From positions 4,200,001-4,232,000 of the forward strand of contig NZ_CP011304.1 of NCBI RefSeq assembly GCF_000981785.2: DNA of 32,000 bases, read 5' to 3'. Source of the DNA: Microcystis aeruginosa NIES-2549 (GTDB taxonomy: Bacteria; Cyanobacteriota; Cyanobacteriia; Cyanobacteriales; Microcystaceae). Both the position numbers and the translations under genes were made by a program. Below the pieces are notes generated by a model. The model saw only the letters and a program-made list of their open reading frames with translations. It searched no databases and was not told the origin of the DNA. This document shows positions 23,546-31,375 of this stretch, in pieces (within the stretch, counting starts at the first letter, position 1; each line of letters opens with the position of its first letter).

Positions 23546-26500
23546 ATGAATAGCCCCTTTCTTGACTACCTCAACGGTCCAAAGCATCCCGTCCTCGTCT
23601 TTGATGGGGCGATGGGAACTTCCCTACAAAGCCAAAATCTGACGGCCGAGGACTTTGGTGGGGCAGAATACGAAGGTTGTAACGAGTATCTTGTCCATAC
23701 TAAACCTAGCGCCGTAGCGAAAGTCCACGAAGCCTTTTTAGCCGTGGGTGCGGATGTGATTGAAACCGACACCTTTGGGGGAACCTCGATAGTTTTAGCC
23801 GAGTACGATTTAGCCGACCAAGCCTATTATCTCAACAAAACCGCCGCCGAACTGGCCAAGGCTTGCGCTAATAAATACTCTACCCCCGAAAAACCCCGTT
23901 TTGTGGCGGGTTCCATGGGGCCGGGGACAAAACTGCCCACTTTGGGTCATATTGACTTTGATACCCTCAAAAATGCCTATGTGGAACAGGTAGAGGGCCT
24001 GTACGATGGCGGGGCAGATTTATTATTAGTAGAAACCTGTCAGGATGTCCTGCAAATTAAAGCGGCTTTAAATGCTATTGAAGAAGTATTTCAGAAAAAA
24101 GGTCAACGATTGCCCCTGATGGTTTCGGTGACGATGGAAACCATGGGAACGATGTTAGTAGGAACGGAAATTAACGCCGTTGTCTCTATTTTACAACCCT
24201 ATAAAATCGATATTTTGGGACTTAACTGCGCCACTGGTCCAGATTTAATGAAACCCCATATTAAATATCTCTCGGAAAATTCCCCTTTTATTGTTTCTTG
24301 TATTCCTAACGCTGGTTTACCAGAAAATGTCGGCGGTCAAGCGCACTATCGCCTCACTCCCGTAGAATTAAAAATGGCTTTAATGCACTTTATCGAAGAT
24401 TTGGGAGTACAAATTATCGGCGGTTGTTGTGGTACTCGTCCCGACCATATTCAAGCTTTAGCGGAACTAAGTCAGGGTTTAACTCCGAAATCTCGTCATT
24501 ATCATTATGAACCCTCCGCCGCTTCTATTTATAGTACCCAACCCTATATTCAAGATAATTCTTTCCTGATTGTCGGGGAAAAATTAAACGCCAGTGGTTC
24601 TAAAAAATGTCGGGAACTGCTCAATGTTGAAGACTGGGATAGTTTAGTATCGATGGCGAAAGCTCAGGTAAAAGAAGGAGCGCATATTCTCGATGTCAAC
24701 GTCGATTATGTGGGCCGGGATGGGGTGCGCGATATGCACCAATTAGCCTCTCGTTTAGTTAATAATGTCACCCTACCTTTAATGTTAGATTCCACCGAAT
24801 GGGAAAAAATGGAAGCGGGGTTAAAAGTAGCGGGGGGTAAATGTATCCTCAACTCTACTAACTACGAAGACGGGGAATCGCGTTTTTATCAAGTCTTGGA
24901 TTTAGCGAAAAAATACGGCGCGGGGGTAGTAATTGGAACCATTGATGAAGAAGGAATGGGCCGCACGGCCGAGAAAAAATTCCAGATAGCTAAACGGGCC
25001 TATTATGCAGCGATAGAATACGGAATTAATCCCTACGAAATCTTTTTTGATCCTCTAGCTTTACCGATTTCTACCGGTATCGAAGAAGACCGAGAAAATG
25101 GCAAGGCTACTATCGAAGCAATGCGTCGAATTCGCCAAGAACTGCCCGAATGTCATATTCTTTTAGGTGTGTCTAATATCTCTTTTGGGTTGAATCCGGC
25201 AGCGCGTCAGGTATTAAATTCTGTCTTCCTCCACGAAGCGATGCAGGTGGGTATGGATGGCGCAATCGTCAGCGCTAATAAGATTCTTCCTCTGGCAAAA
25301 ATTGAACCAGAATATCAGCAAGTTTGTCGGGATTTAATCTATGATAATCGTCGTTTTGATGGCGATATATGTGTTTATGATCCCCTGACCAAATTAACCG
25401 AATTATTTGCGGGGAAAACTACTAAAAAAGACCCCTCTAGTAATGCTAATTTACCCGTGGAGGAACGCTTAAAACAGCATATTATTGATGGGGAAAGATT
25501 GGGACTGGAAGAGGCTTTAAAGCAAGCTTTACAGGACTATCCACCCCTAGATATTATTAATATTTTCCTCCTGGATGGGATGAAGGTAGTGGGTGAATTA
25601 TTTGGTTCGGGGCAAATGCAGTTACCTTTTGTTCTCCAATCTGCCCAAACTATGAAAGCGGCCGTTGCCTTTTTAGAACCCTTTATGGAGAAAAAAGAGG
25701 GGGATAATAATGCCAAAGGGACTTTTATTATCGCAACGGTTAAAGGGGATGTTCACGATATTGGTAAAAATCTAGTTGATATTATCTTGACCAATAACGG
25801 CTATAGGGTGATTAACTTGGGCATTAAACAACCGGTGGAAAATATCATCGAAGCCTACAAAGAACATAAAGCCGATTGTATCGCCATGAGCGGTTTATTG
25901 GTGAAATCGACGGCTTTTATGAAGGAAAATCTAGAGGTTTTTAATGAAAAAGGAATCACTGTTCCTGTGATCCTTGGCGGGGCAGCTTTAACTCCCAAAT
26001 TTGTCCATGATGACTGCCAAAAAACCTACAAGGGACAGGTTATCTATGGAAAAGATGCCTTCTCTGACCTGCATTTTATGGATAAATTAATGCCCGCTAA
26101 AGCTGGGGGTCAATGGGATGATAGTAAAGGCTTTTTAGCGGAGTTTGCCGAGGCAGAAAAAACCCCGGTTGTCGCAGAAGAATTAGAGGTTAATCCCGAT
26201 ACTATTTTTACCGATGGAACCCTAGACAAAGAATTAGTTATTGATACCCGTCGCTCGGAAGCGGTGGAAGTTGATATTCCCCGACCAACACCGCCCTTCT
26301 GGGGTACTAAAATATTAACAGCAGCAGAAATTCCCATCGAGGAGGTTTTCTGGTATTTGGACCTACAAGCTTTATTTGTCGGTCAATGGCAATTCCGCAA
26401 ACCCAAAAGTCAATCTAAGCAAGAATACGACCAGTTTTTACAGGAAAAAGTTCATCCAATTCTGACAGCATGGAAAGAGAAAATTGTCAAGGAAAATTTA

Positions 26501-27109
26501 CTAAACCCCACATTAATTTATGGTTATTTTCCCTGTCAGTCGTCCGGTAATTCCCTGTTAATTTACGATCCCGAATCGATACAAGCAGGCGAAAAACCCG
26601 AAAATCTGCAACCGATCGCCATTTTTGAGTTTCCTCGCCAGAAATCCGGTCGTCGTCTTTGTATTGCTGACTTTTTCGCCCCGCAGGAATCCGGTATTAT
26701 CGATGTTTTCCCGATGCAAGCGGTGACGGTGGGGGAAATCGCCACGGAATACGCTAAATCTCTCTTTGATGCCAACGAATATACGGAATACCTCTATTAT
26801 CACGGCATGGCTGTCCAAACCGCCGAAGCCATGGCCGAATGGACCCACACCCGCATCCGTCGCGAGTTAGGTTTTGCAGAGTTCGATCCCGATAATATCC
26901 GCGATATACTACAACAGCGTTACCAGGGTTCTCGCTATAGTTTCGGCTATCCCGCTTGTCCTAATATTCAGGACCAATACAAGCAATTAGCTCTGTTAGG
27001 ATGCGATCGCATTGGGATGTATATGGACGAAAGCGAACAATTGTACCCAGAACAATCCACCACCGCCATTATTACCTATCACCCCACCGCTAAATACTTT
27101 AGTACCTAA
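23546..27109 (+). CDS. metH: Cobalamin-dependent methionine synthase
   Basis: All four modules are present: the Hcy-binding module (GGCCGT), the pterin-binding module, the B12-binding module (GDVHDIGKN) and the C-terminal AdoMet-activation domain. Confidence 0.97.
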
Positions 27110-27147: not shown

Positions 27148-27219
27148 TTTCAATTATTGCGGTTGTTTAGGAGTCAGTCCCGATGCAACAAGTTACACCG
27201 CCAAACATGAAAATATTCT

Positions 27220-27376
27220 GATTGATAAATTTGCGTTATTTCAGCTTCTATTTTCCAGTCAGTGCCTCTCCTGATATGTAGCCTATACTCAACGGATTTA
27301 GTATGATTGACGAATTTGCGTTATTTCAGCCTCTATTTTCTAGTCAGTAGTTAGTAGTTAGTAGTCAGTAGTCAGG
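27220..27376. repeat. 85-bp-period duplication (44-bp arms) enclosing a 45-bp dispersed repeat, then a (TAGTCAG/TAGTTAG)n heptamer array
   Basis: 27220-27263 matches 27305-27348 with 4 mismatches. 27264-27308 matches 21261-21305. The heptamer array is at 27342-27376. Confidence 0.85.
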
Positions 27377-27416
27377 AGAATTAAGTAGGTAGGCGTTAAA
27401 AATTATCAGACACCAC

Positions 27417-27465
27417 CCTTATCAAGGGTAGGGTTGATTCATGAATCAACCCTACCTTATCAAGG
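27417..27465. repeat. 30-bp perfect palindrome bracketed by 11-bp direct repeats
   Basis: GGTAGGGTTGATTCATGAATCAACCCTACC lies at 27427-27456. CCTTATCAAGG occurs at 27417-27427 and again at 27455-27465. Confidence 0.9.
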
Positions 27466-27536
27466 GGAGCAGGGGGGATCGAACCTAAAATCCATTTTTA
27501 ATTTAATTATAACGAGCTACTTAAGAATAAATTTAA

Positions 27537-27570
27537 CCACTTGACAAAGTGGCCACAGCAGTGGTATTAA
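27537..27570 (+). promoter_or_regulatory. Near-consensus sigma70-type promoter with overlapping small palindromes
   Basis: TTGACA (27541-27546), an 18-nt spacer, then TATTAA (27565-27570). CCACTT-gaca-AAGTGG (27537-27552) and CCAC-agca-GTGG (27553-27564) overlap the -35 element and the spacer. This is about 110 nt upstream of ATG 27680. Confidence 0.45.
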
Positions 27571-27679
27571 TTTAGGATAGGAAGTTTTCGGGAGTCAGTC
27601 GTCGGTCGTTCATACCAAATTAGCCTACACTTCATCTTGATAAGAAAGGCTAGATTTTTTGCAGCTTCTTAGGGAAATT

Positions 27680-28279
27680 ATGACCACTAATCCTCTTAAC
27701 TCGCTCATTTTAGAGCAGATTAGTCATATCTGTGAGCAATACTCGATCGAAAGTCGTATTCTCGAAGATTTTGCCGATTTTGTCATCAAAAACCACCGTA
27801 AAAAGTCTCCCAAACCATCGTTAACTAAATCAAAAACTACAGCGACCACTACAGTTAAAAAAGTTAAACCTTTAACTCTAACGCAACTTAAACAGGCAGT
27901 TTATGCCTATTTTGAGGTTAACAATACCACAGAACTAAAAAAATCGAGTATGTTTCAAATGGCTACTAGAGCCTTTGATAATATCAATTTATCTCAGCGA
28001 GAAAGTTGGGAGGTTATCTACAGGAAATATATCGGTATTCTTCCCGAAGAAGATTACGAACAGGGGAAAGATTGTATCAACGGTATCAATATTTTTAAAT
28101 ATTTTCGTCCCTATCGTGTTTTCGATCTTGATCCAAATACTGCCAGCAAGGAAGACATTAAAAATGCCTATTATCGTCTTTCTAAGATCTATCATCCCGA
28201 TAACCAAGAAACAGGAAACTCTCACATCTTTGATCGTTTGACTGTGATGTATAAATCTATCACCACGGAGATAAAATAA
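27680..28279 (+). CDS. Protein with C-terminal J-domain (HPD motif) and an unrecognised N-terminal region
   Basis: YRVFDLDPNTASKEDIKNAYYRLSKIYHPDNQETGNSHIFDRLTVMYKSI matches J-domain helices I-III with an intact HPD. The ORF track starts at TTG 27659, and ATG 27680 follows tagggaaatt. Confidence 0.7.
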   Translation: MTTNPLNSLILEQISHICEQYSIESRILEDFADFVIKNHRKKSPKPSLTKSKTTATTTVKKVKPLTLTQLKQAVYAYFEVNNTTELKKSSMFQMATRAFDNINLSQRESWEVIYRKYIGILPEEDYEQGKDCINGINIFKYFRPYRVFDLDPNTASKEDIKNAYYRLSKIYHPDNQETGNSHIFDRLTVMYKSITTEIK

Positions 28280-28281
28280 TC

Positions 28282-29283
28282 ATGCCTCAGAAAGCAAATA
28301 CCTTCCTGATCCGGGATACCGAATTAGCTCAATGGTTTTCTATTACTCTTGAAAAACTAGAAAAAATTGTTGATATTTTTGATGCTGATCCTAATGATGA
28401 TTGGGATTTAGTTGAAGGTGTCGATTATCAATTTGTCAACAAAAAAGATAAAGTTAGAGTGTTTTCTTTTGAAGGTGCTTTAAAAATTGCTTCCTATATC
28501 GAGAAGAATGAAAAGCGAGGAATTATATACAGATTTAGAGAATTTTTTACTAAGCACGATCAAAAAATTCGTCGCTCCTTAGCACGAAAATTAATTTTTG
28601 CTGAACTCACTGACTCCGGCGAAATTCAAGTTTATAAAGGACGGCCTATGATTCATAAACAGAGTTTGCGGCGAATTTTAAAAACTAATGGAACCAAGCT
28701 AAATAAAACCGTGAATCATCTTCAGCAAAGAACTGATAAACCTCTAGAATTAGGAGTAGATTTTTACGAAGATGAAAAAAGAGAGTTTTGGTTCTCTGAA
28801 AGTGGAATAGTGATGATTTCTAAATCCATGAGTGAAACTTTGACGAATAAATCGCGCCAAGAAATGTGTAAAATGATTGCAATGGAGTTTCCTCTTGCCT
28901 TTAAAGAAATTCAGGAAAATCTAGATGACGATACCAAACAAAAAATCGAGATTGAAAAGGCTAAAAAACGAGCTAAAACTAGAGATAAAAACACTTGTCA
29001 GGTGACAGGGCAAAAACCGGATAGAAATAATAAATTTAATCTCGCTGTCCATCATCTTTACTCTGCCCAGAAATATCCCCATCTAGCGACATTAGATCTG
29101 AATTTGGTGACTATTAAAGAAGAAATTCACCAAGAATTCCACGGTAACTTAGGGGGATTTCATCAACCTTGTACCATCGAGGATTTTATCGAATTCTTGC
29201 ACGTTTACTATCCCGAACATCATGGTAATTTAGCCTTAAAACTTCAGAAAACTAAGAAAAAACTGGAAAAATTAGCTAAATAA
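28282..29283 (+). CDS. HNH (beta-beta-alpha-Me) nuclease-domain protein with a large N-terminal region, possibly two Bro-N/KilA-N-like DNA-binding repeats
   Basis: The C-terminal sequence is CQVTGQKPDRNNKFNLAVHHLYSAQKYPHLATLDLNLVTIKEEIHQEFH (C..TG...HH...N...H..FH). Two N-terminal segments end similarly (VRVFSFEGALKIASYI and FWFSESGIVMISKSM). The start is 2 nt after the J-domain gene stop. Confidence 0.7.
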   Translation: MPQKANTFLIRDTELAQWFSITLEKLEKIVDIFDADPNDDWDLVEGVDYQFVNKKDKVRVFSFEGALKIASYIEKNEKRGIIYRFREFFTKHDQKIRRSLARKLIFAELTDSGEIQVYKGRPMIHKQSLRRILKTNGTKLNKTVNHLQQRTDKPLELGVDFYEDEKREFWFSESGIVMISKSMSETLTNKSRQEMCKMIAMEFPLAFKEIQENLDDDTKQKIEIEKAKKRAKTRDKNTCQVTGQKPDRNNKFNLAVHHLYSAQKYPHLATLDLNLVTIKEEIHQEFHGNLGGFHQPCTIEDFIEFLHVYYPEHHGNLALKLQKTKKKLEKLAK

Positions 29284-29515
29284 TCATTCAATTTCGGGGG
29301 GTGAATAGCTCCAAAGTGATTATCCATTTTTTGAGGGAAAGAACGACCACATCTCATCATGAGCGATAATTAATTTATTGAAAATTTGGGTTAAAACTCC
29401 TATCTCACGAGGGACAGCCGCATCTAAATCATTGGCAACTATTGTCAACTCCGCCCATAGTATATATGATAGTTGAACTCTAATTTAGGATCTAGCTGGG
29501 TCTAGAGAGGATAAT

Positions 29516-30574
29516 ATGGATAAGATCAAGGTAGGATTGTTGTTTGGTGGTCGATCGGGAGAACACGAGGTATCTATCAATTCGGCTCGATCGATCCTGC
29601 AAGCTTTTAATTATCCCGAAAATCTTGACAAATACGCCGTTATCCCCTTCTATATCGATAAAAATGGCTGTTGGCATTCGGCAGCAACTGCTAGACAAAT
29701 TTTAACCTCTGGGCAACCCCTAGCTATTGAGAGTGATATAAAAGTCAATATCTGGCAATTTCCCCCAGAAGTGAGCGAAATTGAGGTTTGGTTTCCAATT
29801 CTCCACGGACCGAATGGAGAAGATGGCACTTTACAAGGATTACTCACTCTCATGCGGGTTGCTTTTGTGGGTAGTGGGGTCCTGGGTTCATGCCTAGGCA
29901 TGGATAAAATTGCCATGAAAACTGCTTTTGCAGCCGCTGGATTACCCCAAGTTAAGTATAAGGCTATAACCCGCTCGCAAGTGTGGTCAAATGCCTGTGT
30001 TTTTCCGCAATTGTGCGATCAAATCGCCGAGGAAATAGGTTATCCTTGTTTTATTAAACCGGCTAATTTAGGTTCTTCGGTGGGTATTAGTAAAGCTCGC
30101 AACCGGCAAGAATTAGAGGCTGCTTTAGATAGTGCTGCTAGTTATGATCGACGGATTATTGTTGAAGCAGGAGTAACCGCAAGGGAGATCGAATGTGCGG
30201 TTTTAGGTAATGATAATCCCCAAGCTTCTTTGGTGGGAGAAATTACTTTTGATAGTGATTTTTATGACTATGAAACTAAATATACTGACGGGCGATCGAG
30301 TATGGTGATTCCCGCTAATATTCCCGATAAAATTGCTAATCAAGTGCGAGAAATGGCTGTAGAAGCATTTAAAGCTGTGGATGCTGCGGGATTGTCGCGG
30401 GTGGATTTTTTCTATGTGGAAAAGACTGGGGAAGTGTTCCTCAATGAAATTAATACTCTGCCGGGGTTTACTAATTTTAGTATGTATCCCCAACTCTGGA
30501 AAGCCACCGGTTTAGAGTTTGATAAATTGGTCGATAAGTTGGTACAATTAGCCTTAGAAAGACAGGAAAAATAA
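29516..30574 (+). CDS. ddl: D-alanine--D-alanine ligase
   Basis: [36 protein letters not shown], and the ATP-grasp C-terminus [20 protein letters not shown]. Confidence 0.95.
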
Positions 30575-30631: not shown

Positions 30632-31375
30632 TTAGATAGTTTCGGGATCAATGCCCAATTCTCGTAATTTTTGGGCTAATTTTTCCTTCTCCAAGATAGC
30701 TTGTTCTTTTTCTAAAATAGCCTGTTCTTTTGCCTTTCGTTCCTGTTCCTTTTCTAAAAAAATCTGTTCCTTTGCTTGTCTTTGCTCTAATTCAGCTTCT
30801 TGGGGAGTGGGAACCAATTGACCATCGACGGTAAAATAACGCAATTTACGGTCAAATATGCCTAAATATAGTTCTAATTGTTCACTCCATAAATAGCCGT
30901 TTTCATTAGCAGCAATAGCCTGATATTGTCCAGCAATTAATCTAAATCCTTGCAGTTCTAAACTTTCAGGATCAAACCAGAAATAGTTAGGAGTCCGAAA
31001 GGTATTTTGATAGAGATTTTTCTTTTTATTGCGGTCAATATTGGCCGTAGAATCGGAAAGAATCTCCACGATCACATTGGGATATTTACCCCCTTCTCCC
31101 CAGACTACCCAACTTTTACGCGGATGTTTTTCCGTATCTAAGACGACAAAAAAATCAGGACCACAAAAATCACGTTTTTTTAGTTGTTCTTCGTTATAGT
31201 AGATGGTAAGATTGCCCGAAGCATAGTAATTACTTCTTTCTTGCCATAACCTTTCTAAACAACCGATCAGAATTGTAATTTGTTGTAGATGTAGATCACT
31301 TTCCAAAGGTGGTTCATCACTCCATAAATCGGTGGGGGGACAGGTAACTTCCGGTAAAATGTCGAGAGTTGTCAT
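30632..31375 (-). CDS. Uma2-family (DUF820) putative restriction-endonuclease-fold protein with a repetitive coiled-coil tail
   Basis: PDFFVV...VIVEILSDSTANIDRNKKKNLYQN..TPNYFWFDP matches the Uma2 PD-(D/E)XK core. The C-terminal tail is KEQIFLEKEQERKAKEQAILEKEQAILEKEK. Confidence 0.85.
   Translation of the reverse strand: MTTLDILPEVTCPPTDLWSDEPPLESDLHLQQITILIGCLERLWQERSNYYASGNLTIYYNEEQLKKRDFCGPDFFVVLDTEKHPRKSWVVWGEGGKYPNVIVEILSDSTANIDRNKKKNLYQNTFRTPNYFWFDPESLELQGFRLIAGQYQAIAANENGYLWSEQLELYLGIFDRKLRYFTVDGQLVPTPQEAELEQRQAKEQIFLEKEQERKAKEQAILEKEQAILEKEKLAQKLRELGIDPETI

Follow-up and report, generated by a model that had tools for sequence, protein, structure and literature searches.

Class C (type III) J-proteins can be dedicated to a single client, as in the HscB-IscU pair and the cbpA-cbpM operon of E. 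coli. Chaperones are also built into chaperone-dependent toxin-antitoxin (TAC) systems, in which HigB1-HigA1 comes with a SecB-like chaperone. TAC systems are mentioned in PMC12619734, as is a phage-encoded J-domain protein, Rki of phage RB43 (Perrody et al., 2012, via PMC12619734). Among precedents for defence coupled to chaperones, the nearest is bNACHT25, an anti-phage protein that requires host DnaJ for phage sensing (PMC12169576). Here we describe a two-gene cassette of the cyanobacterium Microcystis aeruginosa NIES-2549 that joins a J-domain gene to a gene for a predicted DNA-binding HNH nuclease, a combination of which we found no mention in the literature searched. The cassette lies in a 32,000-nt stretch (contig NZ_CP011304.1, positions 4,200,001 to 4,232,000; hereafter the window), whose numbering we use throughout. 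There, metH (23546-27109) and ddl (29516-30574) flank two same-strand open reading frames (ORFs), 27659/27680-28279 (gene 1) and 28282-29283 (gene 2). The reading we favour, at a probability of roughly 0.45, is that the cassette is accessory and mobile, that its J-protein serves one client and would couple an HNH nuclease to host DnaK, and that its role is conflict-related.

Results

The two genes are strictly paired across cyanobacteria

To judge from the family alignment and the NCBI record, gene 1 starts at ATG 27680 and encodes a 199-aa protein identical to AKE66575.1/WP_046663497.1, publicly labelled 'J domain-containing protein'. The gene 2 product is identical to AKE66576.1 (MYAER_4254, Microcystis aeruginosa NIES-2549), publicly labelled 'hypothetical protein'. 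The original prediction, made from the letters of this DNA alone, had described an orphan two-gene operon with translational coupling and a promoter of its own. We confirm the two-gene unit, the 2-nt gap on which the coupling claim was based and the separate upstream region. 'Orphan' is right insofar as the genes stand alone, but the pair recurs in more than 100 loci.

Relatives of gene 1 were sought in one genome per species by a pattern-limited scan, which found them in 105 species; the best 80 of these 105 loci were examined. All 80 are cyanobacterial and represent many orders, and on these loci the cassette is restricted to cyanobacteria. Every one of them (80/80) carries a gene-2 homologue directly downstream on the same strand. 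The reverse scan, made in metagenomes with a tighter alignment of the gene-2 subfamily, gave 30 loci, and gene 1 lies upstream of gene 2 in all 28 for which upstream sequence is available. Synteny elsewhere had been set in advance as a test of the proposed pairing, and the genes are co-conserved in both directions. The distance from stop codon to ATG is exactly 2 nt (stop-NN-ATG) in 53 of 77 loci, with nearly all the others at 0-4 nt or overlapping, and a GGAG-like motif recurs upstream of the gene-2 ATG across loci. Two small, tightly coupled genes with a conserved 2-nt junction are a toxin-antitoxin-like trait, though one not specific to such systems. This anatomy and the co-occurrence are both firmly established, and taken together they suggest that the two proteins function as a pair and are probably physical partners. 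The features of the cassette are collected in Table 1.

Table 1. Annotated features of the J-domain/HNH cassette, in window coordinates (AF2, AlphaFold 2 model).
Feature	Position	Strand	Description and basis
Left limit of conserved Microcystis cassette	27533-27536	+	blastn homology to seven other Microcystis loci
Palindrome 1	27537-27552	.	CCACTT-GACA-AAGTGG; overlaps -35 hexamer
Promoter-like site	27541-27570	+	-35 TTGACA 27541-27546; 18-nt spacer; TGn 27562-27564; -10 TATTAA 27565-27570
Palindrome 2	27553-27564	.	CCAC-AGCA-GTGG, inside promoter spacer
5' leader	27571-27679	+	~109 nt; conserved within Microcystis (alignment)
Gene 1	27680-28279	+	199-aa class-C-like J-domain protein; ORF, Pfam, AlphaFold, Foldseek
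J-domain	28109-28261	+	residues 144-194; HPD at 28193-28201
Coupling junction	28267-28284	+	GGAG 28267-28270 within gene 1 end; TAA 28277-28279; 2-nt gap; ATG 28282
Gene 2	28282-29283	+	333-aa predicted DNA-binding HNH nuclease; ORF, alignment, AlphaFold
Module 1	28303-28509	+	residues 8-76; beta-alpha-alpha-beta-beta-alpha, winged-helix-like (AF2)
Module 2	28624-28839	+	residues 115-186; predicted fold as module 1 (AF2)
Long helix	28849-28983	+	residues 190-234; joins putative DNA-binding half to nuclease (AF2)
HNH/His-Me finger domain	28984-29175	+	residues 235-298; C239, H257-H258, N274, H283, H287, C297
Right boundary zone	29284-29310	+	homology to Microcystis loci in other contexts stops at 29288 (L010) or 29310 (L008)

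Gene 1 encodes a class C-type J-domain protein

Pfam DnaJ (PF00226) matches gene-1 residues 144-194 with 34.2 bits, above a cut-off of 27.8. The tripeptide HPD, which the original prediction had read as intact, is H172-P173-D174 and is invariant among 33 homologues. In Foldseek the AlphaFold model (predicted local distance difference test score, pLDDT, 85.8) superposes on solved J-domains with a root-mean-square deviation (rmsd) of 1.2-2.2 A and probability 1.0, and a profile of the 33 homologues matched J-domains alone in the PDB. Residues 144-195 form helices I-III; helix IV is absent because the protein stops at residue 199.

The remainder of gene 1 comprises a helical hairpin (8-38), a disordered K/T-rich linker (42-58) and a conserved middle domain (63-140). 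The N-terminal region had been called unrecognisable from the sequence, and its ~140 aa indeed have no Pfam, NCBIfam or PDB match. These non-J regions are nonetheless conserved across the family, the middle domain with 62% mean identity. Neither a G/F region nor the zinc-finger or C-terminal domains of DnaJ were found, the Pfam, NCBIfam and PDB profiles matching the J-domain only. By domain criteria gene 1 is a class C-type J-domain protein, and it is predicted to bind and stimulate DnaK.

Gene 2 encodes a predicted DNA-binding HNH nuclease

A search of 1.84 billion cluster representatives returned 200 relatives of gene 2 (E up to 0.001), about 60 of them full-length judging from the match list. 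C239, H257, H258, N274, H283 and H287 do not vary among 40 family members, and C297 hardly does; the claim of an intact HNH core, with residues of catalytic type, is upheld. The HH-16-N-9-H-4-H spacing is one that we take to be that of colicin-type HNH centres, and the AF2 model predicts strands at 254-258 and 275-279 followed by a helix at 280-289, a beta-beta-alpha arrangement.

Family-level matches are weak or absent. The window protein matches nothing in Pfam, including the Pfam HNH families, while 13 of the 40 relatives match Pfam HNH_2 weakly (best E 6e-4) and the best match to a PHROG HNH family has E=1e-4. Sequence profiles of gene 2 found nothing significant in the PDB, whether the whole protein or the HNH part alone was used. 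The HNH motifs align motif by motif with the En domain of a group II intron maturase at a non-significant E-value. The AlphaFold model has a pLDDT of 91.7, and phage HNH and NinG nucleases in BFVD match its C-terminal part with probability 1.0 and rmsd 1.4-2.7 A; PDB structural matches of the same part to Cap5, Cas5-HNH and PtuB are weaker. Searched whole against the PDB with Foldseek, the model gave only matches with E>0.6, because the protein is multi-domain. By its residues and modelled fold gene 2 is an HNH/His-Me finger protein, for which nuclease activity is predicted.

In front of the HNH domain, the original prediction had seen two tandem modules of Bro-N/KilA-N type. The two modules are real and mutually homologous (hhalign probability 96%, E=4.5e-9); the family label has no support from Pfam. 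Pfam Bro-N (PF02498) and KilA-N (PF04383) gave no match to the window protein at E<=1, and both were absent among the matches listed for the 40 members, the best 25 of 31 families at E<=0.1. The BFVD neighbours of the N-terminal modules, phage 'regulatory', KilA-N and Bro-N proteins, are weak (KilA-N protein, probability 0.63; Bro-N protein, probability 0.90, rmsd 5.6 A). Weak PDB matches of module 1 are to the DNA-binding domains of the winged-helix regulators DtxR, PrfA, MerR and pSK1 Par. For the N-terminal 190 residues, 'DNA-binding, winged-helix-like' is the assignment that the models suggest, and it is as far as the evidence goes.

The length of gene 2 varies within the family. In two Microcystis genomes it encodes 354 aa, not 333 (L009 2732-3823, L010 6576-7667), and in L010 module 2 begins with a stretch of ~21 residues that is duplicated internally (profile positions 132-155 matched twice). 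Four relatives (P0274, P0290, P0300, P0278) have extra C-terminal extensions; three share a tail of ~60-90 aa with the conserved sequence ...GKILAIA...ICFQV...GIWI.ES.L, and the fourth has an unrelated tail of 120 aa. Among the longer family members we found no gene-1/gene-2 fusions, the extra length consisting of unrelated C-terminal extensions.

The cassette is a discrete unit found in several contexts

Across eight Microcystis loci, blastn homology starts at 27533 irrespective of the upstream flank and stops 5-27 nt past the gene-2 stop codon, which marks out a discrete unit of ~1.76 kb from 27533 to ~29290. The unit occurs in at least three Microcystis contexts: in the metH/ddl interval, beside ddl with another upstream flank, and in two unrelated places. 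The cassette is thus independent of its context. A compact intergenic unit with its own promoter-like site and sharp limits between the housekeeping genes metH and ddl could also be a free-standing selfish element of the homing-endonuclease kind. In that case the HNH protein would cut an intergenic target in cassette-free genomes, repair would copy the cassette into the break, and the J-protein would aid folding of the nuclease or its turnover on a tightly bound product. The DNA-binding modules and HNH domain do resemble those of phage homing and NUMOD-type HNH nucleases. However, three or more different contexts in one genus are not what a single cognate site would give, the cassette does not lie within an intron or intein, and we know of no homing endonuclease that requires a J-protein.

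Between metH and the cassette lies a repeat-rich segment of 375 nt (27158-27532) that loci L006 and L012, collinear in other respects, do not have. Within it are two 50-nt direct repeats 85 nt apart (27214-27263, 27299-27348), runs of the heptamers TAGTCAG/TAGTTAG (27341-27375) and a perfect 30-nt palindrome (27427-27456). From these features it looks like a small non-autonomous insertion resembling a miniature inverted-repeat transposable element (MITE).

The upstream region carries a promoter-like site and palindromes

The arrangement TTGACA-18-TATTAA occurs once in the 32-kb window, where 0.03 occurrences are expected by chance, and it carries a TGn extended -10. A near-consensus promoter overlapped by palindromes had been proposed here; the site, its spacing and the palindromes stand, and the qualification concerns the -10 hexamer, which lacks the usual final T. 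A generic promoter scan omitted the site because position 6 of the -10 is A. The two CCAC-N-GTGG palindromes abut one another across the site, and the window has 4 such sites against 0.98 expected. The arms of palindrome 1, which was additionally called as a terminator-like hairpin on the - strand, are kept in 8 Microcystis loci, and the promoter-like hexamers differ between Microcystis strains. In a comparison of upstream regions the palindromes are not conserved beyond Microcystis, so no family-wide operator can be defined. The Microcystis leader has no Rfam match and does not fold unusually (z = +1.16); the idea of a riboswitch or thermometer was dropped, as the leader has neither an Rfam family nor unusual structure.

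Tandem winged-helix-like modules and paired palindromes across a promoter-like site would suit autoregulation. They bring into view a lineage-specific housekeeping role in DNA metabolism or regulation, in which gene 2 would be, for example, a repair nickase or a repressor acting on the CCAC-N-GTGG palindromes, its assembly or removal managed by DnaK via the J-protein. The confinement of the palindromes to Microcystis counts against such a role.

Two further observations concern this region. The 12-mer CCACAGCAGTGG (27553-27564) is present as its exact reverse complement, CCACTGCTGTGG, in the Microcystis loci L006 and L010, as though its middle 4 nt had been inverted between unchanged arms. The layout differs from that of Microcystis in one subfamily (L051, L057, L061, L063, L067, L070, L073, L074, L079, L082), where a consensus TATAAT, 30-40 nt ahead of the gene-1 ATG, precedes a recurring leader motif of the type (A)TGTGGTGGTA.

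Neighbouring genes and phage relatives

We scanned 267 flanking ORFs with Pfam, taking the two nearest per side at ~75 non-redundant loci. There is no recurring third gene, and 5 is the highest count for any Pfam family. That family is Uma2, which is abundant in cyanobacteria generally and is also the commonest second neighbour of the cassette (5 of 129); PIN occurs in 2. In the window, a 247-aa ORF just past ddl (30632-31375, - strand) encodes a Uma2-family putative restriction endonuclease (Pfam E=2e-21). PADLOC, run on 138 nearest-neighbour ORFs, gave scattered matches: PtuB-like in 2, Cmr6 in 1 and PD-T4-6 in 1. Most neighbours are housekeeping genes, which favours a housekeeping role for the pair itself, as does the existence of dedicated J-protein/partner operons such as cbpA-cbpM.

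The original prediction had kept a phage remnant as an alternative and had set confinement to prophages as a test. In the ~75 contexts no recurring integrase, phage structural or replication module lies beside the pair. Neither protein matches any of 50,697 GenBank phage records by tblastn, and gene 2 finds no match by the same method among the PLSDB plasmids. On these results the pair does not lie inside prophages, and its absence from these phage and plasmid collections also speaks against homing. On two IMG/VR contigs, predicted to be phage and carrying terminase and portal genes, there are genes for proteins with 40-43% identity to gene-1 residues 65-198; gene 2 is absent from both, and the phage link is confined to the gene-1 core, that is, the middle domain and J-domain. 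This similarity, and the resemblance of the gene-2 fold to phage HNH and regulatory proteins, could be explained by a decaying prophage remnant or a moron without host function of its own. We consider that explanation highly improbable: beyond the absence of phage genes beside the pair, of matches in GenBank phages and of gene 2 from the two contigs, the junction is conserved throughout the phylum and both genes are under purifying selection, which points to function.

These two IMG/VR contigs carry variant arrangements of the J-domain gene. One (L085 7725-9856) has two J-domain genes in tandem, and the other (L086 7131-8519) has the gene-1 core fused to a low-complexity N-terminus of 285 aa.

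Evolution of the pair

Both genes are under purifying selection in Microcystis: gene 1 has a ratio of nonsynonymous to synonymous substitution rates (dN/dS) of 0.21 and gene 2 one of 0.39, as compared with 0.10 for ddl and 0.07 for metH. Between distinct Microcystis alleles of gene 2, the first 150 residues are 77% identical, with high dS, and the remainder ~96%; module 1 is the most divergent part. A DNA-binding half that diverges more than the nuclease half fits the expectation for a specificity domain.

Several deep subfamilies cross-cut taxonomy, and the gene tree is incongruent with it. Gene 2 of Nostoc parmelioides, for instance, shares 37% identity with its counterpart in Nostoc CHAB 5844 and 73-76% with the versions in Phormidium, a Synechococcales metagenome-assembled genome (MAG) and Coleofasciculaceae. 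Some clades match taxonomy, namely Microcystis with Crocosphaera and a cluster of Leptolyngbyaceae. In Crocosphaera chwakensis CCY0110 (L001 6587-9109) an IS66-family transposase gene splits gene 2, and gene 1 is intact. Apparent frameshifts in gene 2 at four other loci (L020, L035, L038, L078) were considered as evidence of toxin loss and not counted, the search having been ascertained through gene 1. A Prochloron MAG carries two complete copies of the cassette (L055, L060), with gene 2 only 26% identical between them; at L055 a metH homologue lies less than 3 kb upstream on the opposite strand.

A homing element would also be served by a DNA-binding half that evolves faster than the nuclease half and by a patchy distribution incongruent with taxonomy; set beside the several contexts within Microcystis and the other points above, we regard homing as unlikely. 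A housekeeping role gains from the pair being usually single-copy and under purifying selection, and from the clades that do track taxonomy. Against it, relatives were detected in only 105 species-level genomes, and no classical model strain appears among the 80 loci listed (the best 80 of 105) or among the named protein matches. The divergent subfamilies cross orders, Prochloron has two copies, and the cassette is subject to insertion sequence (IS) disruption and to relocation within one genus. We judge a housekeeping role to be unlikely as well.

Discussion

Our analysis points to a self-contained unit of promoter, leader and two coupled genes that could spread or persist together. Gene 2 would be a nuclease built like a site-reading endonuclease, with two winged-helix-like modules and an HNH centre that has its residues complete, and its long helices could mediate dimerisation. 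We expect the gene-1 J-domain to bind host DnaK/Hsp70 and set off ATP hydrolysis; the most likely ligand of the N-terminal and middle regions, which are specific to the family, is the gene-2 protein, either free or bound to DNA. DnaK would then fold, hold, release or switch the nuclease, while stop-NN-ATG with an internal GGAG would fix the ratio of the two proteins. Most simply, gene 1 would act as a J-protein for one client and bring the nuclease, or its complex with DNA, to DnaK. The likeliest role for such a device is conflict-related, whether as a restriction-like, abortive-infection or addiction module with the nuclease gated by chaperone availability. Defence or addiction is plausible, though unproven. 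The original prediction had offered two ideas for the J-protein, a coupling of the nuclease to DnaK status and an antitoxin-like adaptor, and both are conjecture. We favour an accessory conflict module over housekeeping because the distribution is patchy and incongruent, because the cassette has relocated within one genus, because the DNA-binding half of gene 2 evolves fast, because gene 1 has phage relatives, and because an IS has disrupted the pair.

Several results weigh against the accessory-cassette reading. The defence-island enrichment that had been anticipated did not materialise, since neither defence islands nor mobile elements are enriched beside the pair among the 267 flanking ORFs. 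In PADLOC-DB v2 gene 2 has no match and gene 1 none below E 0.02, in keeping with the earlier claim that no described defence system pairs a J-domain with an HNH protein. The cassette ends carry only 7-9-nt chance-level matches in place of terminal inverted or direct repeats, and we found no integrase or terminal repeats that would explain mobility. The estimate of patchiness rests on the pattern-limited scan (105 species) and on an assumed number of cyanobacterial species in the collection. Divergence in one protein tracks divergence in the other across pairs of loci (r=0.80, Mantel p=0.001), which counts towards the pairing but is a result that shared history alone would yield. Several of the apparent gene-2 frameshifts may be sequencing errors in long-read MAGs; L035 is a long-read assembly, and by their assembly names L038 and L078 are as well. 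Finally, neither Pfam nor Foldseek recognises a DNA-binding domain in gene 1, which is therefore not a classical type II antitoxin.

We also asked where the two proteins might touch by correlating divergence domain by domain. The peak falls between the gene-1 middle domain and module 2 (r=0.75), and this locator of an interaction surface was rejected as confounded by shared phylogeny.

A more specific scheme is a chaperone-gated immunity or addiction module. Here the cassette's own J-protein would keep a sequence-reading HNH nuclease under DnaK control, and titration or hijacking of DnaK, by phage or proteotoxic stress, would release or activate the nuclease. We consider this scheme rather unlikely, though if it is true Hsp70 status would serve as a danger signal. 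More generally, if the J-protein does tie the nuclease to DnaK, the pair would be the first bacterial cassette to bring its own Hsp70 adaptor for a DNA-cutting effector. Such coupling would extend recent evidence of DnaK/DnaJ input into phage sensing and give a function to a pair annotated 'hypothetical' in bloom-forming Microcystis and ~100 other cyanobacterial species. The variable DNA-binding half of gene 2 is a possible source of new sequence specificities. The pair is small and readily testable, and point mutants in HPD and H258 offer clear controls.

The cassette shares features with each of the closest known systems and is identical to none in design. Like HscB-IscU and cbpA-cbpM, it has a J-domain with HPD, a family-specific region for client binding, no G/F or zinc-finger region, and a co-transcribed partner; unlike them, it pairs the J-protein with a predicted HNH nuclease, places the J-domain at the C-terminus without helix IV, and has non-J regions that match nothing described. 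With TAC it shares a chaperone link inside a small operon with a potentially toxic enzyme, and an upstream gene tightly coupled to the effector. However, TAC has three genes where the cassette has two, its chaperone is SecB-like whereas gene 1 has a J-domain, and gene 1 carries no DNA-binding domain of antitoxin type. In contrast to type II toxin-antitoxin systems, the DNA-binding modules sit in gene 2 and not in the candidate antitoxin gene 1.

On the nuclease side, the comparison is with McrA-like type IV enzymes, PtuB of Septu and retron systems, Cap5 of CBASS and phage HNH homing endonucleases. All share the beta-beta-alpha-metal HNH fold with invariant H, N and H and a DNA-binding N-terminus before the C-terminal HNH domain. 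The cassette, though, has no ATPase, cyclase, retron or methylase partner, the sequence similarity of gene 2 to these proteins is below significance, and the CxxC of the first zinc knuckle is reduced to a single Cys.

On the chaperone side, bNACHT25 ties an Hsp70 co-chaperone system to the activation of a DNA-degrading defence effector, as the cassette would on the reading favoured here. There, a housekeeping DnaJ works with a NACHT sensor, whereas the cassette has a J-protein of its own and no NTPase sensor. Rki, as a small J-protein of a mobile genetic element that engages host DnaK, recalls the gene-1 core found on two phage contigs. Unlike Rki, the J-protein of the cassette is encoded on the chromosome, carries an additional N-terminal hairpin and has the predicted nuclease as its constant partner.

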